Below, piece after piece: positions 14,296 through 34,538 of a stretch of DNA of 64,000 bases (position 1 is its first letter; each line of letters begins with the position of its first letter). The stretch lies in sequence record OR699282.2, one strand, 5' to 3'. The position numbers were made by a program, and so were the translations under genes. The notes below the pieces were generated by a model. That model made no database searches, was not told the DNA's origin, and was given only the letters and a program-made list of their open reading frames with translations. The DNA comes from Escherichia phage BAU.Micro_ELP-22.

Positions 14296-14323
14296 TTGAC
14301 AAGTTGAAACGATGTGATATAAT
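14296..14323 (+). promoter_or_regulatory. sigma70-type promoter P2 (TTGACA, 16 nt, TGaTATAAT), a tandem copy of P1
   Basis: -35 14296-14301; -10 TATAAT 14318-14323 with upstream TG; flanks align with P1 (GTTGACAAG...GATGTGATA). Confidence 0.65.
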
Positions 14324-14492
14324 GTTCACATCAAGACAGCAAAGAGATTTACCTTTTAAACACACGGATGATTCATGAAGTAACAAAGGAACTGATAAGT
14401 TAAATTATTTTAACACAGTTCCTTTACTTTTGCCCACGGATTGGCTATAATAGAAACTTAAACGATTTTATCCAACAAAAGGAAATATATAC

Positions 14493-15818: not shown

Positions 15819-15833
15819 TTAACAAAGAGTTGT

Positions 15834-15870
15834 TGACAAGAAGGATGCCTAATGGTATCCTTCTTTTATC
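15834..15870 (+). promoter_or_regulatory. intergenic TTGACA box overlapping a weak hairpin (possible internal promoter or attenuator)
   Basis: GTTGACAAG at 15833-15841; AAGGAT...ATCCTT stem then T-rich tract; -10 candidate TATCCT is weak. Confidence 0.3.
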
Positions 15871-15892
15871 TTAACTAAACGAGGAAATATAC

Positions 15893-17317
15893 ATGTCAGA
15901 TAACAAATCTACTTCAAGATTCAATGAAGTATCTCCGGCACTCCAGAAAGAATGTCAAGAACGTCTGGTTCTGGCTCGTACATCTTTGATGTTAACTGCA
16001 CCATTCTTTGGTGTACTCGCTTCACGTTTACGTCCAGTTCCTAATAATACATGGTGTCGTACTCTAGCAGTGGATGGTAAACATCTATTCTACAACGTAG
16101 AATTTGTAATGGGCATTCAAGACCCATCTAAAAAGAAAGAATATGAAGAAGCTATTCGTGAAAAGCACCCTGAAGTTACAGACGAACAATTAAAAGAAAT
16201 GACTGAAGGTTTGACTGATGAAAACCTTGTTGCTGTAATTTGTCATGAAATTCTACACTGTGCTTACGATCACTTCCTTCGTCGTGGTATGCGTGATCCG
16301 CAACGTTATAACCGTGCAGCGGATTATGCCATTAACCAAATCATCGTTCGTGAGAAAATTGGAAAAATCCAAAGTTCATGGTTGTATGATAAAAAATATG
16401 AAGGTATGACCGCAGAAGAGATTTACATTCTTCTTGAAGAAGAAGAACAAAAAGAAGATGGTGAAGGTGAAGGTCAACCACAAAGTGGTGGTGGCGAAGG
16501 TGAAGGTAAAAATCGCGGTACTTTTGGCGATATTAAAGATGGTAAGGGTAAACCAAAAGGTACTACCATTGACCAGCATGACGTTCCACAAGAAGGTCAA
16601 GAGGGTGGTTCAAGTGAACAGCAAAAACGTGATTACATGGATGATTTCAAAACAGCAATGATGAATGCTGCTCGTGCAGGTGGTACACCAGCAGAAATCG
16701 CTCGTATGATTAACAACTTTAAAGAACCAAAGATTGACTGGCGTTCAAAACTTCAACGTACACTTCGTAGTTGGTTGAAGTCTGATGCAACATATCAAAA
16801 TCCGAATCGTCGTTCTTGGGGTGCAGGTTTTGGTTCTAATGGTTCATTCTATGGTAATCCAATTTACCCAGGGATGAAACCAGATGATGATATTGATATT
16901 GCGATTGCACTAGATGCTTCTGGGTCTATTTCTGAAGATATGCTTCGTGATTTCATTAGTGAAGTTCTTGGCATCACTAAACAATTCAAACAGTTTAAGA
17001 TTCGTATCATGACTTTTGATACTGAAGTTTATACTGTAAAGGATTACAAAACTGGCGAAGAACGTAAGATTCTGGAATATCCAGTAAAAGGTGGTGGTGG
17101 TACTGACTTTGAAGCAGTATGGGTTCATATGAAGAACGACAACTACAAGCCTAAACAGCTTGTAATGTTTACTGATGGTGAACCGTGGCAGTCATGGGGT
17201 GATCCAAACTACTGTAAAACACTGTTCGTGATTCACAGTAACCCAAATAAAGTTGCACCATTTGGTGAGACTGTACACTACGAATATGAAGCTGATAAAA
17301 AGCGTCAACGTAGTTAA
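15893..17317 (+). CDS. VWA-domain protein with an N-terminal HExxH (metallopeptidase-like) domain
   Basis: HEILHCAYDH in the N-terminal half; complete MIDAS in the C-terminal half (DASGS ... GGGTD ... FTDGEP). Confidence 0.75.
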   Translation: MSDNKSTSRFNEVSPALQKECQERLVLARTSLMLTAPFFGVLASRLRPVPNNTWCRTLAVDGKHLFYNVEFVMGIQDPSKKKEYEEAIREKHPEVTDEQLKEMTEGLTDENLVAVICHEILHCAYDHFLRRGMRDPQRYNRAADYAINQIIVREKIGKIQSSWLYDKKYEGMTAEEIYILLEEEEQKEDGEGEGQPQSGGGEGEGKNRGTFGDIKDGKGKPKGTTIDQHDVPQEGQEGGSSEQQKRDYMDDFKTAMMNAARAGGTPAEIARMINNFKEPKIDWRSKLQRTLRSWLKSDATYQNPNRRSWGAGFGSNGSFYGNPIYPGMKPDDDIDIAIALDASGSISEDMLRDFISEVLGITKQFKQFKIRIMTFDTEVYTVKDYKTGEERKILEYPVKGGGGTDFEAVWVHMKNDNYKPKQLVMFTDGEPWQSWGDPNYCKTLFVIHSNPNKVAPFGETVHYEYEADKKRQRS

Positions 17318-17329
17318 GTACTAAATAAT

Positions 17330-17360
17330 GAGAACGGAATTTTCCGTTCTCTTCTTTTAT
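17330..17360 (+). terminator. rho-independent terminator
   Basis: GAGAACGG-aatt-CCGTTCTC stem followed by TTCTTTTAT. Confidence 0.65.
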
Positions 17361-17362
17361 AA

Positions 17363-17392
17363 GTGGGACAACTTATAAAAATATGATATAAT
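17363..17392 (+). promoter_or_regulatory. sigma70-type promoter (GTGGGACAA, 16 nt, TGaTATAAT)
   Basis: -35-like GGGACA 17365-17370; TG 17384-17385; TATAAT 17387-17392; same architecture at 63127-63154. Confidence 0.5.
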
Positions 17393-17411
17393 AGTTAATG
17401 TACCAATATAC

Positions 17412-17672
17412 ATGGAGAGTATTAAAATGGAACAAGAAAATAATCAAATTCAACTAACCCTTCTAGACCTAATCAATGCTGCAAAAATCATGGAAGCTGC
17501 TGTTGCACGAAACACCTTTAAAGTTGAAGAACTTGTCGAGGTTGCTCCAGTTGTATCTAAATTTGTTTCTTTTGCAAATGTCGCTCTTGAAGATATTAAA
17601 GCACAAGAAGATGCAGCTAAAGAAGAAGCTGAATCACAAGATAGTGAAACTCAAGAAGATAAAGGAGAATAA
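17412..17672 (+). CDS. small acidic hypothetical protein
   Basis: ORF from ATG 17412; the ATG at 17427 has a GGAG SD 9 nt upstream and may be the real start. Confidence 0.4.
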   Translation: MESIKMEQENNQIQLTLLDLINAAKIMEAAVARNTFKVEELVEVAPVVSKFVSFANVALEDIKAQEDAAKEEAESQDSETQEDKGE

Positions 17673-17674
17673 TT

Positions 17675-18331
17675 ATGGCAGCTATTCGTCATGTTGGTGT
17701 AATGCGTAATACAGGTTCTCGTGTTTTTGTTGTTTGGCGTTCACTACCAGATGATCCTGAACACTGCCTTATCGTTTATCGTGATTCACTACCAGAAGCA
17801 TATGTTCACGCAGTAACTGATATTGTTATGGGTCATGGTCAATCTAATATTGATTTGTGGGAAGTAATGCATAAAATTGGTTATCTCGATGGACGCAAAA
17901 TGCTAGATGTTCTACACAACATGCAGCATCTACGTCGCGTTCGTACTTGTGACATTGATATGCACACTGGTGGTAATAATAAAATTTCTCTTGATGTTCT
18001 AAACAAAGCATTAGATGAGAATCAAGCGAAAGTACAAGAAGATGGTAAAGTAAAAGACTTTAACCCATTCAATCCACAAGAAGCAGACACTAAAGTAGAA
18101 GAAGCTACTATTGTAGAAAAACTTCTCTCTGATGCACAAAAATTTGAACAACTGGCTAAAGAACATTATGAACGTGCATACAATTTAGAGCCAAGCTTGC
18201 GTCCGCAAACACAAGTTGTTGAACAACCGAAAGATAGTAAAACAATTTATCTAGAAATTCCAGAAGGTATTTCACAGACTAAAGCTATTGAGAAAGTAAA
18301 ACAACTATTTGCAGAACGTAAAGCAAAATAA
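17675..18331 (+). CDS. hypothetical protein
   Basis: ATG 3 bp after previous stop. Confidence 0.4.
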   Translation: MAAIRHVGVMRNTGSRVFVVWRSLPDDPEHCLIVYRDSLPEAYVHAVTDIVMGHGQSNIDLWEVMHKIGYLDGRKMLDVLHNMQHLRRVRTCDIDMHTGGNNKISLDVLNKALDENQAKVQEDGKVKDFNPFNPQEADTKVEEATIVEKLLSDAQKFEQLAKEHYERAYNLEPSLRPQTQVVEQPKDSKTIYLEIPEGISQTKAIEKVKQLFAERKAK

Positions 18332-18334
18332 AAT

Positions 18335-18928
18335 ATGAAAAAGAATGAATTAGATGAAGCAATTAAAGGTTTATCTAATGTATGTTTTAGTGGCGGGGCA
18401 GCAGGTGCTGACCGCCTTTTTTCTATCTATGCAAAAAATAATGGATTTGAAGTTATTAATTTTTCATTCAAAGGTCATGAGCATAGTGTAGATGAAAGTA
18501 CTATATTAGAAATACCATCCAATATTCTATCTGATATTTCTATATTAAATCAACTAAACATTGCATGTTACTCGTTGCAGCGAAAAGTGCCAAAGCCTGG
18601 TTCTTATGTTTACAACTTACTTGCAAGGAATAGTTATCAGATACTTAATACAGAAAGAATATATTGTATTGCAAATATCACATCACCAACTAAGGTAAGT
18701 GGTGGTACTGCATGGGCAGTACAGATGTATATGGATTCAGTTGAAAATCCTGAAATTTATTGTTATGATATGAATTCACGTTCAGTATTTTATTTCGATA
18801 CAGTACTGAAAGAGTTCACACAAACATTCGTCGTTCCAGCACCACATGGTAACTGGACTGGTATTGGTTCACGCAATGCCACAGAAAAACATATGGAACA
18901 TTTTATTACATTTTTCAAGGAAGAATAA
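18335..18928 (+). CDS. Rossmann-like protein with GGAxGxD motif (SLOG/DprA/YpsA-like)
   Basis: N-terminal FSGGAAGADRLF; stop overlaps the thymidylate synthase start. Confidence 0.4.
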   Translation: MKKNELDEAIKGLSNVCFSGGAAGADRLFSIYAKNNGFEVINFSFKGHEHSVDESTILEIPSNILSDISILNQLNIACYSLQRKVPKPGSYVYNLLARNSYQILNTERIYCIANITSPTKVSGGTAWAVQMYMDSVENPEIYCYDMNSRSVFYFDTVLKEFTQTFVVPAPHGNWTGIGSRNATEKHMEHFITFFKEE

Positions 18929-19891: not shown

Positions 19892-21856
19892 TTATCTAAT
19901 TGTTACCAATGTTCTTCCGTCGAAACGTACATCAGGTGTTGAAGGTATACTGAACACTACGTTAGTGCCGTTAAACGTCACGCTATCGACCTCAACACGA
20001 GTATAGACACCAGGACTAACCTGTTCCTGTATCTCTGCTGTGACGATGTTTGAGGCTGTTACAGTAAGGGTGTAGTAGTTACCACTTAAGACCCAAGATG
20101 AAATGGTAAAAGCATCGGTTCTCACTGAACCTGAACCAATTGGAACCCATTGACCTTGAACTTTTTGCATTGAAGTACGCTCGGTATTGGAGTATGCAAT
20201 CATACCATCAACGCCAACAGAGTTATCAATAGTAGCTAGTACTGGTAATTGGATACCATATCTATTAAAACGTGTTCTTATAGTTCCATTATCATAGATA
20301 CTTACATCAGCATAATTACCCATTGATAGTTTTAAATCAGAACTAACTAATTGGATTGTACTTTGATTAGTAGCACTTTCTAATGTAATTATACCATTAG
20401 CTAATAGATTTATATTTTTAAATTTATTAGTTGTTCCATTAAAATTAGTATTAGCTGTAAAAGTACTAACACCATTAACTGTAATGGTATCTGATGCAGC
20501 ATCACCTAATGTGGTATTACCTTGAATGTTCAAATTACCACTAGCAGTTATATTACTAGCTGATGTATCCCCAGTTAATGTACTTGTACCATCAACAACA
20601 ATATTACCATGAAACGCACTTTCGCCATTTTTAAATTCAACTTGAACTTTATTCATTGAACTAAATGAAATAATATTACTACTAGCACTTAATCCCACAT
20701 TAGTATTAGTTGCATTATCAAATCTTAGTACTGGCGTTGATGCAGGTGTTGATGTTGATTGATATAATGTTAGTGTTGAATTATTAATTCGAACACGTTC
20801 TGTACCAGCAGTACTGAACCCAATTGCGTCATCGGCTGGATGAAATATACCAGTATTAGCATCGGACCACTTAGTTGGGTCATTACCTGGGTTATTCGTT
20901 GGGTCAAACGGATTATTGTTAAATGTCAATGCTGGTGCTGCTGCACTTCCATACACCACCCCAAAACGCCCAGAGCCGTCTGTTCCATCATTATACATGG
21001 AATCACCAGTTCTACGTAAACACTCAATCACAACGTTATCTATGGATGTTTGAACGGTCCCTGCGTTTGTCCTAAATTGACGATGATTTGCAATCATTAC
21101 AGTATTGTCATATAATACTGAAGCAGCGGAAATGCTTGTTCTTGACTGGCGTAGACGTATGTTTTTATCTTCAGTTATAATAATCCAATCACCATCTGAT
21201 AGTGCGGTTTGGTTCATTGGAACACCTGAAGCAAATGGTTTGGTTAAGTCAGCATCTGTTGCTAAATTTTTAAGACCATCATGACCAGTACTCGGAATAG
21301 ATGCAGGAATAATTCTAGCGAAAGCGTATGTTACTAGTTTAGCACCAGATATATTTGGATTAGAGTCAACATAATATAAAATTTCAATCCAATTACCTTG
21401 TCCAGTTGGATTTGTAGGAGTAAATGTAACAGGACTTGTTTGTGGATTATTTGCTTCATAATGGGCTTGTGCGGCATCCATAATACCACGAACAACATAA
21501 TAATCACCATTTAGTGATGCTGCTGGTGCTGGTAGTGGAGTTTGTGCTAAAGGTGGATCAATATCATCTGGAATAGGATTATATGTACCAACAAATTGTA
21601 AACCACTAGTTACTGAATCTGGTAATTGGGAAGTAAGAAGTTTACCATTTGCATCTAAGTTTGCAAAACGGCGATATGCCATCGTACCATCTTCAAAATC
21701 CAGAACACCTTCAAACGATTTCCATTCCTTATTGTATCTAATCATCCCTGATCTTATTACATCAGCGGTTTCTTTTGATGGTGCTTTCGGTAACTCTAAA
21801 AAAGATTTACTATCAATAATTACACCACCATCACCTCTAATTCGATTTATACTCAT
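19892..21856 (-). CDS. tail fibre protein
   Basis: 654 aa, Thr/Ser/Asn/Gly-rich fibrous composition; GAGGAAA SD. Confidence 0.55.
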   Translation of the reverse strand: MSINRIRGDGGVIIDSKSFLELPKAPSKETADVIRSGMIRYNKEWKSFEGVLDFEDGTMAYRRFANLDANGKLLTSQLPDSVTSGLQFVGTYNPIPDDIDPPLAQTPLPAPAASLNGDYYVVRGIMDAAQAHYEANNPQTSPVTFTPTNPTGQGNWIEILYYVDSNPNISGAKLVTYAFARIIPASIPSTGHDGLKNLATDADLTKPFASGVPMNQTALSDGDWIIITEDKNIRLRQSRTSISAASVLYDNTVMIANHRQFRTNAGTVQTSIDNVVIECLRRTGDSMYNDGTDGSGRFGVVYGSAAAPALTFNNNPFDPTNNPGNDPTKWSDANTGIFHPADDAIGFSTAGTERVRINNSTLTLYQSTSTPASTPVLRFDNATNTNVGLSASSNIISFSSMNKVQVEFKNGESAFHGNIVVDGTSTLTGDTSASNITASGNLNIQGNTTLGDAASDTITVNGVSTFTANTNFNGTTNKFKNINLLANGIITLESATNQSTIQLVSSDLKLSMGNYADVSIYDNGTIRTRFNRYGIQLPVLATIDNSVGVDGMIAYSNTERTSMQKVQGQWVPIGSGSVRTDAFTISSWVLSGNYYTLTVTASNIVTAEIQEQVSPGVYTRVEVDSVTFNGTNVVFSIPSTPDVRFDGRTLVTIR

Positions 21857-21943: not shown

Positions 21944-23680
21944 TTAAACTACAGAAACTCCACTCATTGAAGGTGGAACGATTTGTTCAGCAATTAATAA
22001 TAAATTAGTTACTGTAAACTTACCACCATGTGACATTAACGTAATAGGTGTTCCATTAGTTACTAGGTTACCATTTTCATCAACACTTAAAAATGTATTA
22101 AATGAAATAGTATCAACCGTGATAGTTGGTGTTCTAACTTGATTGATATTATTAAATTGAGTATTTGTAAAATTAATAGCAAAACTCATATTAGACGAAC
22201 TAGTAGTCCATGTACCGTATATATTTAATTTGAAATTTAGAGAGGAATTGAAATTATAAACATTTAACTTATTACTTGTTGTATTGAAGAAACTATCTAG
22301 TGTTCCACTAGTGGGTGTGAATGATTTAAGTATTTGAATTAAATTTTGTTCAATTCCATCAGTGAATTGTATATTTAAGTTTGAATAATATAATTCTCTT
22401 TTTCGACGAATTAGGTTAGTAGTATTATTACCATTAACAAATAATCCAGTACTATCTGATGTTAATATATTACCAGAGGTATTACTGATTTTAGATGAAA
22501 TTACATTAGCGTCAATAGATATACCATTTCCCGCAGTATATGAGGATGGCCCAGATGGAACATACAACCCATTTACGTCAGTTGTTAACGTATTTCCTGG
22601 CGTTGTGCTTATTTTAGTTGAAATTGTTTCAGAACTAATAGATATACCAGTACCACCAACGTAATTTATTCTTGTATTAGGTACAAATAATCCAGTACTG
22701 TCAGTAGATAGTATATTACCAGAAGTAGAACTAATTTTAGTACTGATTACTTCACCACTGATAGAAACACCGGAACCAGCACTATAAGATACTGAATTAT
22801 CAGGCACAAATAAACCATTACTTGTAGAAGATAGTATGTTTTCTGATGTCGGGTCAACCTTCACACTTATTACATCATCACTAATTGAAATTCCATTTCC
22901 TCCATTATAAGTAATTGAGCTATTAGGTACGAATAATCCATTAATATCTGATGTTAGTATATTACCAACAGTAGAACTAATTTTAGTACTTATTTGGTCA
23001 TCACTAATAGTAATGCCAGTACCAGCATTATAAGTTATCGAATTATCCGGCACGAATAGACCAGTACTATCAGTTGTAAGGATATTTCCTAAAGATGTGC
23101 TTATTTTTGATGATATAATATTATTATCTATTTTAATACTTTCACTACCTGTATATGTTACGGTATTATCAGGTACATATAAACCATCTTCGGCAATCGT
23201 GAGGATGTTACTAGGTGATGTACTGATTTTAGTTGAGATAGTATTATCACTTATTGATACACCCGTGCCACCAGAATACACAATTGAGGTATTAGGTACA
23301 TATAAACCATTAGCATCAGATATCAGAATATTTCCAGAATTTAAACTCACTTTAGCAGATATAACATTTGTATTAACATCTATACCATTTCCAGCTACAT
23401 AACTTACAGTATTATCAGGAACATACAAACCATTAGAATCATTACTAAGAATATTGCCTTGTGTTGAACTTATTTTTGTGGATATTAAATTAGAAGATAT
23501 TGATATACCAGTTCCACCTTGATAGTTAATAGTATTATCTGGAACATATAAACCATCACTTTCATGAATTAAAATATTTTTATTTTTAGTACTAATATCA
23601 GGCACTGGTATCTTGCCTATTAGTTCGCCGTCATAACTGATATCACCATTTACAATAATATCTGTTCTTATATTATACAT
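21944..23680 (-). CDS. tail fibre protein with about eleven tandem ~35-aa repeats
   Basis: Repeats of ...ISTKISSTxGNILTxDSxGLFVPDNSxxYxxGxGISIS...; ORF-track start 23704 is TTG, first ATG with SD at 23680. Confidence 0.55.
   Translation of the reverse strand: MYNIRTDIIVNGDISYDGELIGKIPVPDISTKNKNILIHESDGLYVPDNTINYQGGTGISISSNLISTKISSTQGNILSNDSNGLYVPDNTVSYVAGNGIDVNTNVISAKVSLNSGNILISDANGLYVPNTSIVYSGGTGVSISDNTISTKISTSPSNILTIAEDGLYVPDNTVTYTGSESIKIDNNIISSKISTSLGNILTTDSTGLFVPDNSITYNAGTGITISDDQISTKISSTVGNILTSDINGLFVPNSSITYNGGNGISISDDVISVKVDPTSENILSSTSNGLFVPDNSVSYSAGSGVSISGEVISTKISSTSGNILSTDSTGLFVPNTRINYVGGTGISISSETISTKISTTPGNTLTTDVNGLYVPSGPSSYTAGNGISIDANVISSKISNTSGNILTSDSTGLFVNGNNTTNLIRRKRELYYSNLNIQFTDGIEQNLIQILKSFTPTSGTLDSFFNTTSNKLNVYNFNSSLNFKLNIYGTWTTSSSNMSFAINFTNTQFNNINQVRTPTITVDTISFNTFLSVDENGNLVTNGTPITLMSHGGKFTVTNLLLIAEQIVPPSMSGVSVV
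22460..23600 (-). repeat. in-frame tandem coding repeats (~105 bp unit, about 11 copies)
   Basis: Periodic peptide repeat visible in the translation of 21944-23680. Confidence 0.6.
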
Positions 23681-23700
23681 ATATTTTTCCTTATAATGAA

Positions 23701-23728
23701 ACAAAAAAAGGTCAACTATTGTTGACCT
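23701..23728 (-). terminator. rho-independent terminator (minus strand)
   Basis: AGGTCAAC-tatt-GTTGACCT with a T-tract on the minus strand. Confidence 0.55.
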
Positions 23729-23735
23729 TTATTAA

Positions 23736-24515
23736 TTAACGTATACGTTCAGGAATATCAATACCTTCATATACCCAAATTGCAGCTTGTTGTGCTTTAT
23801 AAATTGCATCAGGATCTAAATCATCAACCGCATCAATTGCAGAACACTGTTTATCACATTCGGTAAACAATTGCTCAATCATTGCAAATGCTTCAGTATA
23901 TAGTTGTGTCATTTCAGCAGCAGATAATTTAACAATTGCATCATCAAGAAAAATAGAAACACTTTCAGAGCCTGAAGTGACTTGTGTATAATAATTAAGA
24001 AGCATTTGACGACCAGACATATCAGTACTGTAACGATGACCATTGAACATATAACCAGAATTCATACGATTTGTACGTTCTGATATAGTTCTTGCTTTTA
24101 AATCAGCTTTAACATCTGCTATTGGCATATCAATATAATGATATGTTTTAAGAACAGTTAGTGCTTTATATTCTTCGGTAGCGTCTTCTAAAAATTCAAC
24201 AATAGGTTGATTTTCATCTTTTAATTTAATAAACTCCAACGGTTGTTCAATAGCATTAACATTTCCAACATTTTTATACACTAACCACCAAAAACCTTCT
24301 TCTTTTCTAACAGCATCATTAGGTTCTACTGGGGAACCATCTTTACTTGAAATACCATAAAGAGTTCTAATATCACTATAAAGATAACGATAGGTTTGTG
24401 GATCTTCTGGTGTTGCACCAGGACGTTCTTTAAGTCCTTTTACACCAATTGGATTGGAAATAATGTTTCCCAATTCATAATTTTCTTTTGAATTTCCTTT
24501 CACATATGTGAACAT
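23736..24515 (-). CDS. hypothetical protein (within the fibre locus)
   Basis: ATG start with GAGGT SD; no motif. Confidence 0.4.
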   Translation of the reverse strand: MFTYVKGNSKENYELGNIISNPIGVKGLKERPGATPEDPQTYRYLYSDIRTLYGISSKDGSPVEPNDAVRKEEGFWWLVYKNVGNVNAIEQPLEFIKLKDENQPIVEFLEDATEEYKALTVLKTYHYIDMPIADVKADLKARTISERTNRMNSGYMFNGHRYSTDMSGRQMLLNYYTQVTSGSESVSIFLDDAIVKLSAAEMTQLYTEAFAMIEQLFTECDKQCSAIDAVDDLDPDAIYKAQQAAIWVYEGIDIPERIR

Positions 24516-24579: not shown

Positions 24580-27500
24580 TTAAGCTGTACGTTGTGCAAT
24601 AAACATATCTGCTACTGGACTCACACCGTCATAAATGACTTGGTAAATGGTCACACTACCAGCAGTTTTGTTTAGAGTTCCATCAACAACCGCATAAGTA
24701 CCGTCAGTAGTAAAGTTTCTATTACCTGTTGCATCTTGTTTTACATAAATGTATACTGAAGATGCTTTACCACCACCAATTAGACCAGTGATTGGTGCTA
24801 GAGTTGTATCTTGATCTAGAGTGATAAAGTATACGTTGCTAGTACCGTCTGGGGTCCAAGTACCAGTTGGTGCGATAACAGAAGAAGTTACTTGATTAGG
24901 AATAACATCATATTTTTTAGTAGTTACTGTTGTAGTAGTTAGGTCAGCATTAGTAGTTGTTAATTGACCAGTTACAGTTACATCTTTATCAAATACCGCA
25001 TTTTCTTTGAAAGAAGATGTTGCATTGACAGTTAATGTATCAGCAGCAGCGTCACCTAAAACAACACTACCATTTGCAGTCATTAAACCAGTAACAGTTA
25101 AAGTACCACCGATGGTTGCTGCTCCAGTAACAGATGCACTAGCAAGTGTTGCTGCACCAGAAGTAGTAATGGTAGTTACTGAAGTTGCTGCTAGGGTTGC
25201 AGTACCTGTTGCAGAAATATCACCACCAACAGTTAGGTTACCAGAAGTAATTCCAACGGTTCCAGTAATGTTAGCACCACTTGACATTGTTACTGCACCA
25301 CCAAATGAACCAGTAGTAGTTACTTCAAGGGTGTTCCCTTTTAGTAGACCAGTTGCAGTAATACTTGTACCTGCGGTAATGCTAGTACCAGCAGCAACAC
25401 TGTTGGTTGCAGTTAATGATTTAACAGCTACATCAGAGTTTGCTTGGTTTAGTGTTGCGTTTAGAAGACCAGTTACTGTAAAGTTACCGTTGTTAACTAC
25501 GTTACCATTGATTGTTAAGTTGTTGTTTTGTGAACCAACATCACCAATAGTTGCTGATTTGGAAATCAACTCTGCACCAGAAGTAATGTTACCCGCTGCA
25601 CTAATAGTGTCAGCCGCAACAACTGCATAAGGTTCAATTGTTTGACCACTAACGTCAATATCAGCGTTGATACCACCATCTACACGCAAGGAGCCTGCAA
25701 TGTAAGTATTAGGGAAAATCTGAACTGTCTCTGGTTGATCACCAATTTTAGTACCAATAATAACATCAGAACCAGTTTTAACTGCACCAGAGGTTGTTAG
25801 AGAACCTAAAGTTGTAGCACCAGTTACGCCTAATGTTCCACCAATTGTTGCGTTATTGGTAACTGCTAATGCAGCACCTTCACCATTAAGAGCGATTGAT
25901 GGAGCAGATACTGCACCAGTTACGCCTAATGTTCCACCAATTGTTGCGTTGCCATCTGAATGTAGAGTTGTAGCTACAGAAAGACTGTTAGCAACTACAT
26001 CAGTACTAGCTAAATCCAATGCACCTGGGGTTAATGTACCAGTAATGTTAACATTATTACCAAAGGTTGCTGCACCAGTCACATCTAGTGTAGTACTAAA
26101 TGTACCAGAGGTTGCAGAGATTGCACCTGAATCTAGTGATCCAACAGTTGCTTTACCAGTTACACCTAAAGTTCCACCAACAGTTCCATTTGTGGTTACA
26201 TCCAATGTACCAGTACTTAGTTCTTGTGCGGTTACCTTACCGGATGCAGTAACAGTTGAAGTGGAAACGCCACCAGTTAGAGTACTAGCACCAGTAACAC
26301 TTAATGTGGTTGCAGCAGTTACGCTATTTACGCTAAGATCAGCACCGGATAAGTCCAAACCACCTTCAGGAACAAATACACCCTTAACAGTTAGTTTTTG
26401 TACTGTACTATCACCTGTTACATCCAAGGTAGAAGCAGTTAAACCACCATTCATACTTGCTGCACCAGTAACACCTAGTGTAGTGGTTACAGTAGCACTA
26501 TTAAGTGTTGAACTACCAGAAATATTAGCACTAGGAGCAGTAATAGTTCCAGAATCAACTTGTATACCACCTGCAACAACCTGAATTCCACCAGCATTAA
26601 CTGTTAGTTTACCAGCAGTATTCAATGTATTTGAAACTGTTGTTGCACCAGTTAAAGTTGTAGTACCAGTTACACCTAAGTTACCAGAAATAGATGGACT
26701 ACCTGTAATATTACCAGTAGTTAGTATCAAATCAGTACCTACGGTAGTGGAGCCAGTACTTTCTAGTGTTACACCAACGATGTTTGCAGAACTTAGGTTA
26801 ATAGTACCATCAACAGTTAAGTTACCTTGAACGGTTGCATCACCTAGAGAAGTTAATGTCTTCACAGACACATCAGTTGTGCTAAGATCAATAACACCCG
26901 CAGTTAGTGTTCCAGATACTGCTAAATTACCAGTAATCGCGGTATTTTTAGTAATGGATACATTTTCTGCCGCTGAAGTAATAGAACCAACAGTAAGTAC
27001 ACCACCAACAGTTGCGTTATTAGTTACATTTAGAGCAGTTCCAACACCAGATAGTGTTGCTGACCCACCAGTAATTGCACCTGAGATTGAAGCTGTTGCT
27101 GCTGAAACATCACCAGAAACTACTGCATTTGTTGCATTTAGAGCAGACACTGTTACTTCAGTACTTTGAACTTTAGGTAGAACGTTGATACCTTCTGCAC
27201 TACTAACTGTAATAATACCAGTACTTGTTATAGATTTAACAGATACATCAGCACCACTTAAATCAACTGTACCAGAAACAACAAGATCTCCACCAATATT
27301 TGCTCCAGCGGTAGTAGTAATGGATTTTGCACTTACATCAGTTGTGCTCAAATCAATTGCACCTGGTGTTACTGTACCAGAAACTGTTAGGTCACCAGTA
27401 ATAGATGTATTATTGGAAATAGATACACCATCAACGTTACTAATTGTTGGGGTTTCTACAGAAACTGCTTTAACTTTACCTGAAGAAGTTACGTCAGCTA

Positions 27501-30105
27501 CGGTAGATGCACCAGTAACATTCAAATTAGTAATATTTGCAGTTGTTGAACCAAGGGTTGCAATAGTTGCATCAGTACTTTGAAGTTTAGGTAGAACACT
27601 ACTAATTGTGGATTCATTACTAACAATTGCACCAGTACTAGTTAAAGATTTGACAGTAACATCAGCCGTAGTAAGATCTACTGTACCATTAACAGTTAGG
27701 TTACCACCAATAGTTGCACCAGCAGTAGTAGTAATGGATTTAGCATTAACATCAGTTGTTGCTAGATCGATAGAGCCTGGAATAACTGCACCAGTAACGG
27801 TTAGGTCACCAGTTACATTTGTATTATTGGAAATAGTGACACCACTTGCATTTGAAATGGTTGGGGTAACCAACGATGCAGTTGTAGTTTCACCAGTTAC
27901 AGTTAAAGTTGACCCAACTAGAACAGATGAGCTTGAGTAAATTGTACCCAAATTAGCAGATCCGGAAACAGTTATATCATCAGCATTAACAGTAGTTGCC
28001 GTTATGGTAGTACTATTAAGTACTGGAAGTACGTTAGCATTAACAAGATCATTACTTTTAACAATACCAGAAGTAGTTAATGATTTAACATTAAGGTCGG
28101 CTGCTGATAAATCAAAAGAGCCTTGAACTACTAAATCACCACCAATAGTTGCACCAGCAGTAGTAGTGATTGATTTAGCATTAATATCGGTAGTGCTCAA
28201 GTCTAGAGAACCAACAGTTAAGCTACCAGTAATATCAACATTTTCTGTAAAGTTAGTATTACCACTAATAGTTGGTGCAGTCAGAGTTGTTGCACTAATA
28301 TTAGTACCGTTAATTGTTTGCCCACTTACAGTTCCACTCGCAGTGATAGTAGGAGCCGTTACTTCAGTAGATGCACTAATTGTTGGTGCAGATACAGAAG
28401 TTGTACCAGTAATAGAACCAGAACTTACTGAACCAGCGGATAATGCACCAGAAAGAGTTGCAGTTGTACCAGCAATATCACCAGTAACAGTTAGTTTAGC
28501 ACCCACGGTAGTGTTACCAGTACTTTCAAGTGTTGCACCTTTAATATTTGCTGCCGCGACAACAGAATTAGGTGTTAGATCCTGACCACTAACATCAACA
28601 GTTAGTCCAGTTACTGTTCCAGTAAATTCAACATCATTAAGAATTGCTTTACCACCAACTTGTAGGAATGGTGTACCTGGAGCTTGTGTTTCGTTACCAG
28701 TAATAGTTAGGTAATCTAGTTTGTTTAGACCGTTACCAGTAATACCATAAGTGGAAAGAGAAGCGTTACCGAAAGTTGCTGTTTTAAGAACGTTCAATGT
28801 AGAAGGAGAAACAACTTCTGATTGAACTTCGTTAGGTAGAATAACTGTTGGGCGTTGACCTGGTGCAGTATATCCAAAACCTAGTTTCACTGCCGCATCT
28901 TGACTATTTTGACCTAAGCTGATAGCTTTAAAGGATGCAGTACTGTTATAACCAGTAATATTAGAACCAAGAGTAACACCACCAACTAATGAAGTTACAC
29001 CAGTAACGTTCAAAGATACTGCATTGATATCGTCTAGTTGGAACGTTCCACCAAGAAGTCCAGAAACATTAATGTTATTAAAATTAGCAGTACCAGTACT
29101 TTCGATATTTGGAATAGTTGCAGTTCCGGTTACTTCAAAGTCCGCAACTTTAGTTTTGCCTTTTTGAACTTCTAATAGTGGTGTGTCTGGTGATTGTGTA
29201 TTGTTACCAGAAACTGTTAGATAATCTAATTTGTTTAGACCATTACCAGTAATACCATAAGAAGATAATGACGCATTACCAAAAGAAGCAGAGGTCAATA
29301 CTGTCAAGTTTGCAGGTGACATTAGCTCGGACTGAATTTCGTTTTGTAGAATAACAGTTGGGCGTTTACCAGGAGCAGTGTAAGGGAAGCTTAATCTGAA
29401 GGTTTGTGATTCAGAGTTAGAACCAATACGAATGTCTTTAAAAGTAGCAGTACTGTTAATACCAGTTACGTTAGCACCGAAAGTTACTGCACCTTGTTGG
29501 TTAGATGCACCAGTAACGTTCAATGTTACTGCATTTAAGTCAGATAGATTAAACTCACCACCAAGTGTACCACTAATTGTCACATCTTTAAATGTAGCAG
29601 TACCAGTACTACTAATATCTGTTGTACTTACATTAGTAATTTCTGCGGTATTAGCAGTAATTTTATCAAATGCAGCAGTAGTCCCAACATCAGCAGTAAT
29701 ATTACCTTTAAATGCTGTTGTTTCAGCAACTTCTAAGTTTTTAACTTTAGTTGCTTGTAGAGTGGTTGTACCAGCAGTTTGTGTAAAATCAGAACCAACT
29801 GATACAGTACCGTTAAAGGTAGCGTTTGAATTAATTGTTGCTGTATCAGACCCGACAACTGCACTACCGATTGTAGTATTACCCTCAACACCAAGACCAC
29901 CAGAAAGTGTTGCTTTGCCACCTACATCTAAAGTAGATGTAATATTGGCAGTTGATGATTCAATGGCAGTAAAAGTTGCATTTGCAAAAGTTACAGTACC
30001 ATTTACAGTTAGGTTATTATTGAAAACAGCATTTCCTTTGACTAAAAGATCCTTACCAACCGTACCAGCACCAGTAATATCTAAGTCAGTTTTTATTGAG
30101 TACAT
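24580..30105 (-). CDS. giant fibrous protein (1841 aa), probable tail fibre
   Basis: Thr/Gly/Ser/Val-rich beta-rich repeats; GGAGGG SD; internal duplications at two scales. Confidence 0.65.
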   Translation of the reverse strand: MYSIKTDLDITGAGTVGKDLLVKGNAVFNNNLTVNGTVTFANATFTAIESSTANITSTLDVGGKATLSGGLGVEGNTTIGSAVVGSDTATINSNATFNGTVSVGSDFTQTAGTTTLQATKVKNLEVAETTAFKGNITADVGTTAAFDKITANTAEITNVSTTDISSTGTATFKDVTISGTLGGEFNLSDLNAVTLNVTGASNQQGAVTFGANVTGINSTATFKDIRIGSNSESQTFRLSFPYTAPGKRPTVILQNEIQSELMSPANLTVLTSASFGNASLSSYGITGNGLNKLDYLTVSGNNTQSPDTPLLEVQKGKTKVADFEVTGTATIPNIESTGTANFNNINVSGLLGGTFQLDDINAVSLNVTGVTSLVGGVTLGSNITGYNSTASFKAISLGQNSQDAAVKLGFGYTAPGQRPTVILPNEVQSEVVSPSTLNVLKTATFGNASLSTYGITGNGLNKLDYLTITGNETQAPGTPFLQVGGKAILNDVEFTGTVTGLTVDVSGQDLTPNSVVAAANIKGATLESTGNTTVGAKLTVTGDIAGTTATLSGALSAGSVSSGSITGTTSVSAPTISASTEVTAPTITASGTVSGQTINGTNISATTLTAPTISGNTNFTENVDITGSLTVGSLDLSTTDINAKSITTTAGATIGGDLVVQGSFDLSAADLNVKSLTTSGIVKSNDLVNANVLPVLNSTTITATTVNADDITVSGSANLGTIYSSSSVLVGSTLTVTGETTTASLVTPTISNASGVTISNNTNVTGDLTVTGAVIPGSIDLATTDVNAKSITTTAGATIGGNLTVNGTVDLTTADVTVKSLTSTGAIVSNESTISSVLPKLQSTDATIATLGSTTANITNLNVTGASTVADVTSSGKVKAVSVETPTISNVDGVSISNNTSITGDLTVSGTVTPGAIDLSTTDVSAKSITTTAGANIGGDLVVSGTVDLSGADVSVKSITSTGIITVSSAEGINVLPKVQSTEVTVSALNATNAVVSGDVSAATASISGAITGGSATLSGVGTALNVTNNATVGGVLTVGSITSAAENVSITKNTAITGNLAVSGTLTAGVIDLSTTDVSVKTLTSLGDATVQGNLTVDGTINLSSANIVGVTLESTGSTTVGTDLILTTGNITGSPSISGNLGVTGTTTLTGATTVSNTLNTAGKLTVNAGGIQVVAGGIQVDSGTITAPSANISGSSTLNSATVTTTLGVTGAASMNGGLTASTLDVTGDSTVQKLTVKGVFVPEGGLDLSGADLSVNSVTAATTLSVTGASTLTGGVSTSTVTASGKVTAQELSTGTLDVTTNGTVGGTLGVTGKATVGSLDSGAISATSGTFSTTLDVTGAATFGNNVNITGTLTPGALDLASTDVVANSLSVATTLHSDGNATIGGTLGVTGAVSAPSIALNGEGAALAVTNNATIGGTLGVTGATTLGSLTTSGAVKTGSDVIIGTKIGDQPETVQIFPNTYIAGSLRVDGGINADIDVSGQTIEPYAVVAADTISAAGNITSGAELISKSATIGDVGSQNNNLTINGNVVNNGNFTVTGLLNATLNQANSDVAVKSLTATNSVAAGTSITAGTSITATGLLKGNTLEVTTTGSFGGAVTMSSGANITGTVGITSGNLTVGGDISATGTATLAATSVTTITTSGAATLASASVTGAATIGGTLTVTGLMTANGSVVLGDAAADTLTVNATSSFKENAVFDKDVTVTGQLTTTNADLTTTTVTTKKYDVIPNQVTSSVIAPTGTWTPDGTSNVYFITLDQDTTLAPITGLIGGGKASSVYIYVKQDATGNRNFTTDGTYAVVDGTLNKTAGSVTIYQVIYDGVSPVADMFIAQRTA
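27050..28280 (-). repeat. three to four tandem ~135-aa coding repeats inside the giant fibre gene
   Basis: Recurring G(S/A)IDLSTTDV(N/S)AKSITTTAGAxIGGxLxVxG...DLSxADVxVKSxT. Confidence 0.55.
28640..29640 (-). repeat. two tandem ~165-aa coding repeats (~500 bp each) near the N-terminus of the giant fibre
   Basis: DNA around 28690-29160 and 29200-29630 aligns by eye; peptide blocks FGNASLS(S/T)YGITGNGLNKLDYLT and YTAPG(K/Q)RPTVIL repeat. Confidence 0.6.
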
Positions 30106-30194: not shown

Positions 30195-30240
30195 AAATAT
30201 AATAAAAAACCAGACTTATTTAGAACAAGTCTGGTTAATT
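30195..30240. terminator. hairpin with T-tracts on both strands, just after the 30244-31140 stop
   Basis: AACCAGACTT-9 nt-AAGTCTGGTT. Confidence 0.55.
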
Positions 30241-30243: not shown

Positions 30244-31140
30244 TTACTTACCAGAGATTACAATCTTACCACTGAAAGAAATATCAGAAGTGAAGATTAC
30301 ATCACCAGTACTACTAATTTGTGTATCAGTCACTACCAATTCAAATGGAGATGACGCAACACTCCCAGGTGTTTTATTTGCATAAATTGAAATATACAAA
30401 TTATCTGGTGTTTGATTGTGTTCAGATGCAGGAATAGTGATTGTAAAATCACCAGCACTAGAAACCCAATCTGCTTGGTTTACCAATTTACTATAAGGTA
30501 CTGTCATTGTTGTTGCTCCTATAATGTTTACTTTAACACTTGCATAATCTGTGATTTGACCAATCACATCAATTGTTATATCCCCAATACCACTAACTGT
30601 TACTGTGGTTTGGAATACTGATTCCAATGCAACATTACCTGGGTCACCTTGTAGTTGGATCATAATATCAGAACCTCTACCATGAACTGATTCTGGTAGT
30701 GTGTAAGTATAATGATCAGTAGTATCTGGTACTAATGTAAATGCAGAAACAGGAACTATTTCAGTAGTTACATATGAACTATCAGTCCCAGGTGAGCTAC
30801 CTTTAAATGGTTTCCAAATACCAAGATCTTTAATATAAATTTGAAGAACATTAGTACTATCAACCAAAAAGTAAACGTCACCATCTAGACCGATTGAATC
30901 GGATGGTGCTGTTGTTCCACGTAAGATACCAGAACTACCACCACCACTGTGTGCGTTTAAATATCCCAATGTAACCAAGTGTGTGTTTGCAGTTGGTTCA
31001 CCTGCTGAAATTGGAAGAAGTTGTGTTCCTGAGTAGTTTTGAATTTGCACAACACTACCATTTGTGGTAATCTGTGCACCATTCTTCCCAAGAATGAAGG
31101 ACTTCTTCATGGTTCCTTCTAAATTAGAAAAAACTGCCAT
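30244..31140 (-). CDS. receptor-binding protein (short) sharing an N-terminal domain with the adjacent tailspike
   Basis: N-terminus MAVFSNLEGTMKKSFILGKNGAQI... parallels MAVFSNFEGTMQPKFILGKKGASI... of 31157-33298. Confidence 0.5.
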   Translation of the reverse strand: MAVFSNLEGTMKKSFILGKNGAQITTNGSVVQIQNYSGTQLLPISAGEPTANTHLVTLGYLNAHSGGGSSGILRGTTAPSDSIGLDGDVYFLVDSTNVLQIYIKDLGIWKPFKGSSPGTDSSYVTTEIVPVSAFTLVPDTTDHYTYTLPESVHGRGSDIMIQLQGDPGNVALESVFQTTVTVSGIGDITIDVIGQITDYASVKVNIIGATTMTVPYSKLVNQADWVSSAGDFTITIPASEHNQTPDNLYISIYANKTPGSVASSPFELVVTDTQISSTGDVIFTSDISFSGKIVISGK

Positions 31141-31156
31141 TTTAATATAATCTCCT

Positions 31157-33298
31157 TTATGGTAGGGTTATGTAAGTTACGGGTTGGGCAGCTTTTAATG
31201 CTGCACCAGCGGCAGTTGCTGTTATGATAGGATCTGCAATATCAATTCTATATACGTTGTTTACAACATACACTGCACGAGTTATATACGTTCTCAAATC
31301 ACCACCATTTTCACCAGCACCGGATATAATGATCTCAGTACCAGCAGCTTTTGCATATTGGTTTTCACCCCATGACACACCCAATGCTTCTATGTATGTT
31401 TGTCCTACTACCGTTTGTCTAATTGTGTCATATTTTCCGAAAAAAGAACCACCAACAGTTACAATATATTTTCCACCCGATTGTTTATGAATAATCGTGC
31501 CTTCAGAGAAATAGCGTCCCCCAGGAAAAGTATCGTATGGAATATAATATTGCTCAACTACAGGTATCAGTACTGGGCCACGGTGACCTGTACCATCGAT
31601 TGCAGTTGTAACTTTAAAGTTATTAGATGATTGGTCTATTCTGTCTACATACATTTTAGAAAAACTATATTTTGAAACATTACAATCATCTTGAACAACA
31701 CAGTTAGTCCAATTAGTATAAGTATATTTAGAGCGAGTATAGATACCACCACCTTCGCCTTCGGTAGAGAGGTGTTGACCAATTACATCTAATTCTTTAG
31801 TTCTAATATCACTAAATTTAGATGATGATGGCAAACCACGCCAAAGGATTTTAGAACAGGTGATATTGCTCAATTCTGTATTATTTAACCAATTATCAGA
31901 ACCGGAAGTATAAACAAGTATAGAAGACTCTGGAATATAGAGATTAGAAATTTTAAAGTTTCTAGGTGGTCCAGCAAAACGACCAGAAGTTACACCCCAG
32001 TTTATTGAAACCATTCTATTTGTGATAGAAGGATCATTAAGCAAATGACCAGTCAACCCATCAATAATGAATTCTTTCGAACCATAAGTTATAACACCAG
32101 CAGTGGTTAATCCAGTACCAACAGAAACTAAAGATGATGGATAAACTTCATTATTAAGTATTTTAAAGTCCATTCCTAATTCAACGTGGATACATTGTCT
32201 AACATTATATAGTCTGTTATTTTTAATAACAAAGTTTCTGACATATTGTGTATCTGGTGCATCTAAACCATAAGGTCCAGAACCAGCAACGCCAATACCA
32301 ATACCCCAGTTTGAAAGTGGGATTGGAGCGTTAGAACCATCAACGTTTTCAATTACGTTTCCTTCAATCACAAAACCATCAGGATAATGTGAGTTAATTA
32401 CGTTTAGTTCAATTGCATCACCATAGATATCATGAATATGGTTATATGAATATCTACCAACCTTCATTTTCTCACCAGTACCTTGTTGAAGAACACCATA
32501 CTTACATTGGGTCATTTCATTAAAGCAAAAATCTATTGTTCCTGGTTGTGTCATACCTTGCATTAAAAATGCAGCAGTACTTGTGATGTTTATAAATTTA
32601 TTAAAATAAAACTTACCATCTCCACCGAAGAATTTTAAATAACATCCAGTAAGTGTTGCAAATTGTATTTGGGAATTAATAACGGATACCATAGTACCAC
32701 CATTACCAGTAATAGTTCCCCCAAACCAAGTTACATCTTCCAGGTATATTGCAGTTTTGATACGGTAATTACCACCAGCCTGAATTTGGATTTTATTTTC
32801 TTTAGCATAAGCAGCACATAAATTTACAGCAGCAGTGTCATCAGTTTCGCCATCACCTTTAGCACCAAATTCTTCTGGTGTTATATAAAACTGTGCCTGT
32901 TGAACTGTACCTCCAGTAATAAGTCCGATGAAATCTCCACCATTTTTACTGGATAGAACTTTTTTATTAATGTATAATGATTTTACCCATGTACCATTGC
33001 TTTTTGCAAAAATATCAACAATACCATCTTCATCAATTTGAAAATACGTATTATTGTTCTTTCCTATATCATCTGTAGGTGGTACAACACCAAATAATGC
33101 ATTAGGGTTATCTTCAAGATATTTTACGTTAACTGCTGAATTAGGGTCAGATGAAGTTCCTACCTTCAGTGGTAGGAACTGTTCTCCTAGATAATCTTTT
33201 ATAGAAACTGAATCATTGATAAAATTTATTGAAGCACCTTTTTTCCCCAATATGAATTTGGGCTGCATAGTTCCTTCAAAATTAGAAAATACTGCCAT
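31157..33298 (-). CDS. tailspike with a pectate-lyase-fold polysaccharide depolymerase domain
   Basis: Signature EEFGAKGDGETDDTAAV typical of right-handed beta-helix glycanases; N-terminal domain shared with the neighbour. Confidence 0.7.
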   Translation of the reverse strand: MAVFSNFEGTMQPKFILGKKGASINFINDSVSIKDYLGEQFLPLKVGTSSDPNSAVNVKYLEDNPNALFGVVPPTDDIGKNNNTYFQIDEDGIVDIFAKSNGTWVKSLYINKKVLSSKNGGDFIGLITGGTVQQAQFYITPEEFGAKGDGETDDTAAVNLCAAYAKENKIQIQAGGNYRIKTAIYLEDVTWFGGTITGNGGTMVSVINSQIQFATLTGCYLKFFGGDGKFYFNKFINITSTAAFLMQGMTQPGTIDFCFNEMTQCKYGVLQQGTGEKMKVGRYSYNHIHDIYGDAIELNVINSHYPDGFVIEGNVIENVDGSNAPIPLSNWGIGIGVAGSGPYGLDAPDTQYVRNFVIKNNRLYNVRQCIHVELGMDFKILNNEVYPSSLVSVGTGLTTAGVITYGSKEFIIDGLTGHLLNDPSITNRMVSINWGVTSGRFAGPPRNFKISNLYIPESSILVYTSGSDNWLNNTELSNITCSKILWRGLPSSSKFSDIRTKELDVIGQHLSTEGEGGGIYTRSKYTYTNWTNCVVQDDCNVSKYSFSKMYVDRIDQSSNNFKVTTAIDGTGHRGPVLIPVVEQYYIPYDTFPGGRYFSEGTIIHKQSGGKYIVTVGGSFFGKYDTIRQTVVGQTYIEALGVSWGENQYAKAAGTEIIISGAGENGGDLRTYITRAVYVVNNVYRIDIADPIITATAAGAALKAAQPVTYITLP

Positions 33299-33312: not shown

Positions 33313-34428
33313 TTAAATATTATCTTGAATCGGTTGGATAGGAGCTTGCCATGAAAGAGTACAAATAATTTCCATTTTTCCATAAGGACTGTTGTTAACA
33401 GAATCGTTGAATACACATGAAATAATTTCATCAACATCGGATGCTGCATGATTAGTTTCATTAACAATAAAACGCATCTGACGATTGATATCAAAGTAGG
33501 AAGTTGGTGCAATTACCGTCCCGCCAATATCTTCTTGTGCTTCACCACCAAAACGTACAAACATATCAGTTACTGGAAGAGAATAAGGTTGTATAACGTT
33601 TACATCAATATTAGAAACTACATATCCAGCAGGACATGTACCAATAACTAATAGTGCGTTAGTCCATGAGCTATCTATGGTATTTCTAATAGAAATTGTA
33701 TCTTTACCTGGTGCACCTGGTTCGCCTTGTATACCTTGAATACCTTGCTGACCTTCTTTACCACGGAATAGAATACCATCACTCCACTCTTTTGAAGGAG
33801 GGGTAGTTGTAGTTACTTCATCAACATAATATAGTTTTCCATCAGTGTTGTTATAAAAACAATAATCAACTGGAAGATTTTCAATACTTGGAAATTGATC
33901 ACCACTGCTATCAATATGGAAACGACCACGCGGACCTTGTTCACCACGGAAAGGTATACCATCACTCCAAGTAGCAGTTACACTTTGATAGAAATAAAGT
34001 TTACCATCTTGAGTATTATAAAATGTATAGTTATTAAAAAGACCAGTTGTTGGGAAAGTAGTTCCAGCACTATCAATGTGGAACGGCTTACCCGCTTCAC
34101 CCGTATCACCTTTACCAAACTCAACACTAATCCATGTACTTGTCGGATCTTGTGCATCATTTGATTTAAAGTATAGAGTACTGGTATTGTTAGCCAAGCT
34201 TAAGTAGCACCACCCAAGTGGTTCACCAACTTTAAATTGTTCGGAAGGAATTTCAAAACCAATCTCATTAGGATAAAAGTTTTTACCATTCTCGCCATTC
34301 TGTCCTACAACAAGACCTAAATCTTGAATTGTGTTATCTGCATAGGTTACAATTAAATGCCCAGCACCATTAATAACTAGACTTTTGATGCCGGAGTTAT
34401 TACATGAACCATTAAATGAAATTGTCAT
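33313..34428 (-). CDS. tail fibre protein with short collagen-like Gly-X-Y runs
   Basis: RGEQGPRG and GKEGQQGIQGIQGEPGAPGKD; ORF-track start 34464 is TTG, first ATG with AAGGGAAA SD at 34428. Confidence 0.5.
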   Translation of the reverse strand: MTISFNGSCNNSGIKSLVINGAGHLIVTYADNTIQDLGLVVGQNGENGKNFYPNEIGFEIPSEQFKVGEPLGWCYLSLANNTSTLYFKSNDAQDPTSTWISVEFGKGDTGEAGKPFHIDSAGTTFPTTGLFNNYTFYNTQDGKLYFYQSVTATWSDGIPFRGEQGPRGRFHIDSSGDQFPSIENLPVDYCFYNNTDGKLYYVDEVTTTTPPSKEWSDGILFRGKEGQQGIQGIQGEPGAPGKDTISIRNTIDSSWTNALLVIGTCPAGYVVSNIDVNVIQPYSLPVTDMFVRFGGEAQEDIGGTVIAPTSYFDINRQMRFIVNETNHAASDVDEIISCVFNDSVNNSPYGKMEIICTLSWQAPIQPIQDNI

Positions 34429-34538
34429 AATATTTCCCTTGTATGAGTTAATGTCATATACCAATATTTATCAGTACAAAATACATTTCGTTATCATTAA
34501 TAAATAAATGAAAGTTCACTACTAAAAGGGCTTAAACA

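Follow-up and report, generated by a model that had tools for sequence, protein, structure and literature searches.

What does a phage gain when two neighbouring tail genes begin alike and then part ways, and which of the two, if either, recognises the host? This question is raised by a pair of adjacent genes in the genome of Escherichia phage BAU.Micro_ELP-22 (sequence record OR699282.2), here called A (298 amino acids) and B (713 amino acids), both on the minus strand of the stretch of 64,000 nucleotides that was analysed (the window). They belong to the tail-fibre module of a jumbo coliphage of the 121Q/PBECO4 type, and the 3.5-kb region that holds them is 99.3-99.5% identical in DNA to CRJP21, SHEFM2K, 121Q, phAPEC6, PBECO4, SP27 and G17, which are Asteriusvirus-type Escherichia phage genomes of about 350 kb. 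The explanation favoured here, with a probability of roughly 0.62, is that A is an ancestral core protein of the virion and B a chimera carrying a colanic acid-degrading body, whereby the first part of their common N-terminal region (N1) would serve as an anchor and the second part (N2) as a trimer unit. The coordinates of all features are collected in Table 1.

The shared N-terminal region

The two proteins start with MAVFSNLEGTMKKSFILGKNGA (A) and MAVFSNFEGTMQPKFILGKKGA (B). In a BLASTP comparison, residues 1-109 of A align with residues 1-104 of B at 39% identity (E 7e-20), and no other significant segment is found. The initial annotation, made from the DNA alone, had described adjacent genes with a common N-terminal module and different downstream parts, and this description holds, with its coordinates exact. 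It had proposed an alignment of the first ~70 residues as a check; the similarity is significant there and extends beyond them, to a common region of about 105 residues. A hidden Markov model (HMM) of this N-terminal domain (the N-domain) matches B at residues 1-106 (E 4e-42). No third copy was found in the 64-kb window, either by tblastn or by the HMM against all six-frame open reading frames (ORFs); a tblastn match at 23163-23312 (E 0.4) is considered a chance hit, since the HMM finds no third copy.

The relationship between the two copies appears to be an old or a fast-diverged one. Beyond the first 33 bases, 30 of which match, the DNA of the 5' ends of A and B shows only about 50-55% identity, and the N-domain of B is equally distant (37-43% identity) from the A-type domains of E. 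coli, Cronobacter and Klebsiella phages, which excludes a recent copy of the neighbouring gene. The A-type N-domains are 62-86% identical among themselves, and that of B is 78% identical to its counterpart in phage fEgEco12, the enzyme bodies of the two being 88% identical. Because the N-domain of B is equally far from all A-types and the DNA identity is low, it is, on these comparisons, an old or fast-diverged paralogue. Across 42 orthologs of A, the invariant positions are M1, A2, F4, S5, N6, G9, T10, G18, K19 and G21.

The predicted colanidase

The longer protein had been taken for a polysaccharide depolymerase, and its close homology to the colanidase gp150 of phage Phi92 argues for an enzyme of this type. 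Residues 96-712 of B match the crystallised chain of gp150 (PDB 6E0V_A, chain residues 11-623; E 1.8e-235). The body is 57% identical over 617 amino acids to gp31 of Justusliebigvirus 'alia', residue 189 of which aligns with residue 96 of B, and the protein matches PHROG 6117, 'colanic acid degradation' (E 4e-264). Its orthologs in CRJP21, 121Q, PBECO4 and phAPEC6 are annotated as 'colanic acid-degrading protein'. The depolymerase signature GAKGDGETDDTAAV, said in the initial annotation to be carried by the longer protein only, indeed occurs in B (residues 145-158) and not in A, and aligns with GAIGDGVTDDTQAI of Phi92 gp150. The Pfam model PF12708 (pectate-lyase superfamily) is found on residues 143-250 with E 3.3e-5 and 24.2 bits, missing the gathering cut-off of 27 bits, and the fold assignment of B thus rests on 6E0V. 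Residues 262-459 also match WcaM, a protein of the host colanic-acid cluster (NCBIfam TIGR04004, E 2e-26), far under the equivalog cut-off; this match explains the misleading label 'colanic acid biosynthesis protein' in several phage records.

In colanic acid, the enzyme gp150 cleaves by hydrolysis the β-1,4 bond between glucose and fucose (Xu 2025, cited in PMC13450770). From the 57% identity to a gp150-type enzyme, B would be expected to hydrolyse colanic acid as well. Colanic acid is a general enterobacterial slime and not a type-specific capsule. The earlier step from a depolymerase to a capsulated host is therefore overstated, as an enzyme with this probable target says little about a capsule.

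The N-terminus of B has another origin than its body. In other, more distant colanidases, encoded by rV5-like myophages and by phages of about 41 kb, the alignment with B begins no earlier than residues 96-115, and the 188-residue N-terminus of the Phi92-type colanidases contains neither N1 nor N2 and shows no similarity to the N-terminus of B. Since the match of the body starts at residue 96 and the Phi92-type N-terminus is unrelated, B is, by these alignments, a chimera with its junction near residue 100. Recombination inside an N2 shared with a Phi92-type donor is ruled out by the lack of both parts in the Phi92-type N-terminus.

The conserved partner gene

The product of A matches PHROG 10468 ('virion structural protein') over its full length (residues 1-298, E 5.5e-100). 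Of the 73 homologs found by a search, nearly all have a length of 284-309 amino acids and span 100% of A; 41 were aligned, and their identity to A is 42-85%. The named sources are phages of Cronobacter (GAP32), Yersinia and Erwinia, to which tblastn adds Pectobacterium phage CBB, Serratia phage BF and Salmonella phage PHA46. In CBB virions, electrospray ionization tandem mass spectrometry identified the ortholog CBB_227, with 5 peptides and 32% coverage, along with its neighbours CBB_226, the long fibre, and CBB_228, the tail protein encoded upstream (PMC5259590).

An AlphaFold model of A (mean predicted local distance difference test score, pLDDT, 78) comprises a beta region (14-35), a Gly-rich stretch of low confidence (47-70), a beta unit (72-111) and two beta-sandwiches (120-298). 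There is no match to A in a PDB sequence search, and no branching domain of the T4 gp10-like or CBA120 type (XD) was detected in it by sequence or structure comparison. Because its C-terminal half is kept across host genera and is predicted to be of a generic Ig-like kind, A behaves, as far as sequence and prediction can tell, as a core component of the virion and not as a swappable receptor-binding domain. The initial annotation had regarded both products as modular receptor-binding proteins. The modularity stands, in that N1 (about 65 residues) recurs before different C-terminal modules, which fits exchangeable cargo; a role of A as a receptor binder is not supported, given the conservation and the predicted generic fold of its C-terminal half.

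Two parts of the N-domain

A word-indexed homolog search with a 114-column profile of the N-domain yielded just five short, mostly frameshifted fragments. An exhaustive HMMER search, in which a profile of 14 N-domain sequences was run against 1.84 billion representatives, gave 441 matches at E <=1e-3, and these split the shared region into N1 (positions 1 to ~70) and N2 (~65-112).

Every carrier of N1 (residues 1 to ~65 of A) has it at residue 1, and conservation across the carriers is highest in the first 21 residues (MA-x-F-S-N-x-x-G-T-M ... G-K-x-G). N1 heads the A-like proteins, a metagenomic colanidase (P0084, 723 amino acids), a protein with a pectate-lyase-type start and a Peptidase_S74 chaperone (P0103, 780 amino acids), a protein with the Pfam domain Beta_helix (P0107, 705 amino acids), a set of long proteins of 1204-1366 amino acids with BNR/Asp-box repeats, some also with CBM5/12 (P0113, P0118, P0157 and P0175, the four covered by the domain scan), and several short proteins; two further carriers, P0176 and P0205, are similar in length to the BNR proteins. 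No Pfam or NCBIfam model matches N1, and its PHROG matches are limited to phrog_4302 (unknown function) and phrog_10468 ('virion structural protein'). NCBIfam likewise gave no match for A, P0103, P0107 or gp574 of 121Q, and scans of IMG/VR for the N1-bearing metagenomic proteins returned C-terminal chaperone matches only, or nothing. In cultured phages N1 is found in RaK2-like jumbo phages only, bar a weak partial match in the 440-kb Salicola phage SCTP-2.

Two of the N1 carriers occur together. P0103 and an N1-bearing Beta_helix gene of 705 amino acids, whose N-terminus is identical to that of P0107, lie 6 kb apart on one contig of 120 kb, next to a protein of 902 amino acids whose counterparts in jumbo phages (those of Erwinia and Serratia, CBB and GAP32) are 65-67% identical to it. 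This similarity indicates that the contig derives from an uncultured RaK2-like phage. Its N1 tailspike genes (8001-10343 and 16571-18343) flank two paralogous proteins of about 900 amino acids (10428-13136 and 13757-16516), which match PHROG 3573 (unknown function), have an N-terminal motif of their own (MSKKI.G.L.V...) and are of a type present in three copies per genome in relatives. Precomputed Pfam annotation places PF27114, 'Phage_tail_beta', on both N1 tailspikes of the contig, and a scan of P0103 and P0107 gave no match to it, the model being apparently absent from the set; its probable location is the stretch behind N1 (residues ~70-170), outside N1 itself. The window holds two ORFs of 887 amino acids (3017-5680 and 57097-59760), which are related neither to each other nor, in the case of the former, to the 902-residue protein.

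N2 (residues ~66-112 of A) is found in quite another setting, in 4-15 copies inside hundreds of long proteins, in some of which its units are interleaved with collagen triple-helix repeats (PF01391); one of these proteins has an LPXTG anchor. The unit of about 45 residues superposes on the trimerisation domains of collagen XV/XVIII at 1.8-2.5 Å over 40-50 residues, and N2-like units in viral collagen-like proteins of the BFVD are among its best structural matches. Judged from the models, N2 is probably a trimerisation nucleus.

The same observations could be turned against an anchoring role, if the whole of N1-N2 were a folding or trimerisation nucleus for fibres and spikes and other surfaces or proteins attached them to the virion. 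The likeness of N2 to the collagen trimerisation domains and to units of collagen-like proteins would suit such a role, as would its internal repetition in hundreds of long fibre proteins, in positions where anchoring is impossible. Yet the confinement of N1 to residue 1 and the strong conservation of its first 21 residues form a pattern typical of a terminal docking element, and the N-domain of RaK2, described below, stands alone with nothing downstream to trimerise. This explanation, which survives best among the alternatives, is regarded as unlikely.

Distribution among the relatives of RaK2

In 121Q the counterparts of A and B are gp572 ('structural protein') and gp573 ('colanic acid-degrading protein'), flanked by gp574 ('structural protein'; 'tail protein' in PHROG) and gp571 ('long tail fiber proximal subunit'). 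The A-type gene lies downstream of a gp574-like gene in every relative inspected (121Q, fEgEco12, GAP32, CBB, PHA46 and RaK2). The order in GAP32, CBB and the Salmonella phage PHA46 is tail protein, A-type gene and long fibre, without a colanidase; in 121Q and fEgEco12 the colanidase gene sits between the tail protein gene and A. Among the relatives inspected, the colanidase gene is confined to the coliphages. By tblastn, the listed E. coli phage records and the near-identical Salmonella SD phages hold two N-domain copies (EJP2 holds one), and all other relatives listed hold one, the count of two N1 genes per genome having been made with three different N1 queries.

In RaK2 the A-type ORF of 115 amino acids consists of the N-domain alone and ends just past the conserved GIWKP; the same is true of K64-1. 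The next gene of RaK2, ORF060w, is an ortholog of the window ORF at 19892-21856 (121Q gp569; 48% identity). RaK2 and K64-1 thus lack, as one block, the Ig half of A, the long fibre of ~1550-1840 amino acids and the gp570-like gene (the stretch of RaK2 examined was 12001-14045). The preservation of the N-domain as an intact ORF fits a structural role of the N-domain itself, although the Alcyoneusvirus genomes are closely alike and its retention is for that reason not strong evidence. N1 was not found in the nine fibre proteins of RaK2 by tblastn, which gave one place per record.

The distribution also bears on whether A is an adaptor for B, whereby the paralogous N-domains would associate or form mixed trimers and the colanidase would ride on A, in the manner of the primary and secondary tailspikes of G7C or of the KP32 type. 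The two genes are indeed adjacent, only 16 bases apart and apparently co-transcribed, with a terminator-like hairpin after them, and B is seen only in genomes that also carry A. An identity of 39%, however, makes mixed trimers unlikely, the two N1 spikes of the uncultured relative lie at a locus without an A-type gene nearby, and the absence of a detectable T4 gp10-like branching domain in A speaks against it as well. An adaptor of this kind is thus slightly less probable than a mere trimerisation nucleus.

The favoured explanation and the points that weigh on it

The account preferred here, of an ancestral core protein and a chimera joined to the virion by N1, draws on the homology, the chimeric junction, the distribution across lineages and the reuse of N1 on other enzymes, all of them apparent from the sequences. 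A would be the ancestral core virion protein of the RaK2-like clade, built of N1, a Gly-rich hinge, N2 and two Ig-like domains. B would have arisen by fusion, near residue 100, of a paralogous N1-N2 with a catalytic body of the Phi92 gp150 type, whose original N-terminus of 188 residues was replaced. By way of N1 both proteins would attach to a conserved partner in the virion, located at the baseplate or at the base of the fibres, and N2 would help trimer formation. The enzyme would then allow the particle to cut the colanic-acid slime of enterobacteria in order to reach its receptor, and A would keep a structural, decorative-stub or weak-adhesion role. The gp574-like tail protein is a reasonable candidate for the docking partner, because its gene is invariably the next one upstream and the protein is plentiful in virion proteomes; in the listed rows of the phAPEC6 virion mass-spectrometry table, gp253 of this type has 65.6% coverage, and gp256, the long fibre, is detected as well.

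A broader proposal, held only tentatively and at somewhat less than even odds, is that N1 represents an undescribed docking module of the whole clade of RaK2-like jumbo phages, by which accessory spikes are plugged onto a conserved socket of the virion. Three architectures might then be distinguished: A as the ancestral occupant, the 115-residue 'plug' of RaK2, and the colanidase, other beta-helix depolymerases and BNR fibres of the coliphages and uncultured relatives.

Several points tell against the favoured account. Neither A nor B appears among the listed rows of the phAPEC6 table, in which the rows of gp253 and gp256 are adjacent with no gp254 or gp255, and no proteome data for the B ortholog were found beyond that table. 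The phAPEC6 record (MK817115.1) leaves the 5' part of the A-type gene (188038-188379) without an annotated feature, which may partly explain the absence of this protein from the proteome list. The N-domain of B, at just 37-43% identity to every A-type N-domain, might occupy a different site, so that the docking of both proteins to one virion site, as in the initial annotation, is no more than a possibility. In the AlphaFold models, all of them of monomers, pLDDT is below 50 at residues 1-7 and 47-70. Cultured phages carry only the colanidase in the slot upstream of A, and real module swapping appears only in metagenomic relatives and at another locus. Attachment, the partner, stoichiometry, trimerisation and enzyme activity are, moreover, inferred properties.

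The absence of B from the listed phAPEC6 rows, together with the naming of 121Q gp573 by function and of its neighbours as 'structural protein', could also suggest a non-structural, diffusible enzyme whose N-terminal similarity is a functionless relic of duplication or recombination, but a relic would have decayed, whereas this N-domain is kept in fEgEco12 and in the metagenomic P0084, and homologous colanidases in other phages are annotated as tailspikes, which leaves this the least probable of the three alternatives.

Genomic context

Table 1. Position of genes A and B, their domains and neighbouring features in the window
Feature	Position	Strand	Remarks
ORF A	30244-31140	minus	298 aa; conserved virion structural protein; ortholog of 121Q gp572, CBB_227 and GAP32_221
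A N-domain, residues 1-112	30805..31140	minus	N1 (strands 14-35, helix 58-64), Gly-rich linker 47-70, N2 (strands 72-111); from AlphaFold models
Two predicted beta-sandwich (Ig-like) domains, A residues 120-298	30247..30783	minus	conserved FSGK(V/I)VISGK C-terminus
ORF B	31157-33298	minus	713 aa; putative colanidase tailspike; ortholog of 121Q gp573
B N-domain, residues 1-104	32987..33298	minus	N1 ~1-60 and N2 ~61-104; paralogous to the A N-domain
gp150-type colanidase body, B residues 96-712	31163..33013	minus	predicted beta-helix glycanase; 6E0V match
GAKGDGETDDTAAV motif, B residues 145-158	32825..32866	minus	start of pectate-lyase-type beta-helix
Terminator-like hairpin	30208-30236	minus	13-bp stem and T-run, 8 bases past the stop codon of A; pattern scan
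gp574-like 'tail protein' gene, upstream	33313..34428	minus	371 aa from the annotated ATG; PHROG 13565 'tail protein', E 2e-220
Long fibre gene, downstream (121Q gp571)	24580..30105	minus	1841 aa, repetitive; PHROG 4549 'tail fiber protein'

Both A and B are preceded by a Shine-Dalgarno-like sequence (GGAG/GGGAGG). An intergenic region of 138 bases, which contains the hairpin, parts the gp574-like gene, B and A from the long-fibre gene, and the three may form one transcription unit that is ended by the hairpin before the long fibre.

In the ORF list the gp574-like gene (33313-34464, minus strand) begins with a TTG, which lies 12 codons before the ATG annotated in 121Q and RaK2. Its product has short collagen-like Gly-X-Y runs at residues ~235-253, with a weak match to the collagen repeat, and two copies of an internal repeat (G..FH IDS.G..FP...Y.FYN..DGKLY...W). 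The resemblance of these repeats to N2 is superficial, and the N2 profile gives no match.

Further downstream, between the gp569- and gp570-like genes, lies an ORF of 586 amino acids (21944-23704, minus strand), the C-terminal part of which matches PHROG 1030, 'tail needle knob'. It is found in PBECO4, where an overlapping feature is annotated as 'YadA domain protein', and in CRJP21 and UB, and is absent from 121Q, phAPEC6, G17, Sharanji and others, whose matches cover just 63% of the query. The G+C content falls to 0.30 in the bin 22001-24000 of the composition profile. This ORF looks like a strain-variable accessory fibre gene.

Relation to known systems and implications

The closest characterised relative of B, Phi92 gp150 (PDB 6E0V/6E0W; Justusliebigvirus; PHROG 6117), resembles it along the whole crystallised chain and shares the pectate-lyase-type start motif. 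Enzymes of this type possess an N-terminus of their own, 188 residues long, whereas B has the unrelated N1-N2 of about 100 residues that is specific to RaK2-like jumbo phages. A, for its part, is a full-length member, without any difference, of the family of 121Q gp572, CBB_227 and GAP32_221 (PHROG 10468), for which no function, fold or location has been described. In the models, N2 resembles the trimerisation or flanking units of the collagen XV/XVIII NC1 domain and of viral and bacterial collagen-like proteins.

In the tailspikes TSP1-4 of CBA120, in gp526-gp534 of RaK2 and in the dual receptor-binding proteins of the KP32 type, related N-termini assemble on the particle and the distal modules differ (PMC10253068). 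The A/B pair is like these systems in combining related N-termini with different distal modules within one genome. It differs from them in that just B is an enzyme and A is a clade-wide core protein, and neither XD nor other CBA120-type domains, as known from CBA120 and T4 gp10, were detected in the pair.

The A/B pair is a clear, if unremarkable, example of phage tail proteins that have a probable attachment module in common. That N-terminal anchors carry exchangeable enzymatic modules is an established principle of tailspikes, and the colanidase gene has been annotated in some 30 published genomes; papers on these coliphages give the colanidase merely as an annotation, and in the literature collection searched no paper mentions the relationship between the N-termini of gp572 and gp573. 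The present work locates the point at which the colanidase body was joined to its N-domain, near residue 100, provides evidence that the partner gene encodes a conserved core virion protein and not a second receptor binder, and delimits N1 as a module found at the head of several different depolymerases and fibres of jumbo phages. Should N1 prove to be a docking element, it would offer a defined graft point, or handle, for re-targeting the host range of RaK2-like jumbo phages, and would serve as a landmark for reading the unassigned densities of their baseplates.

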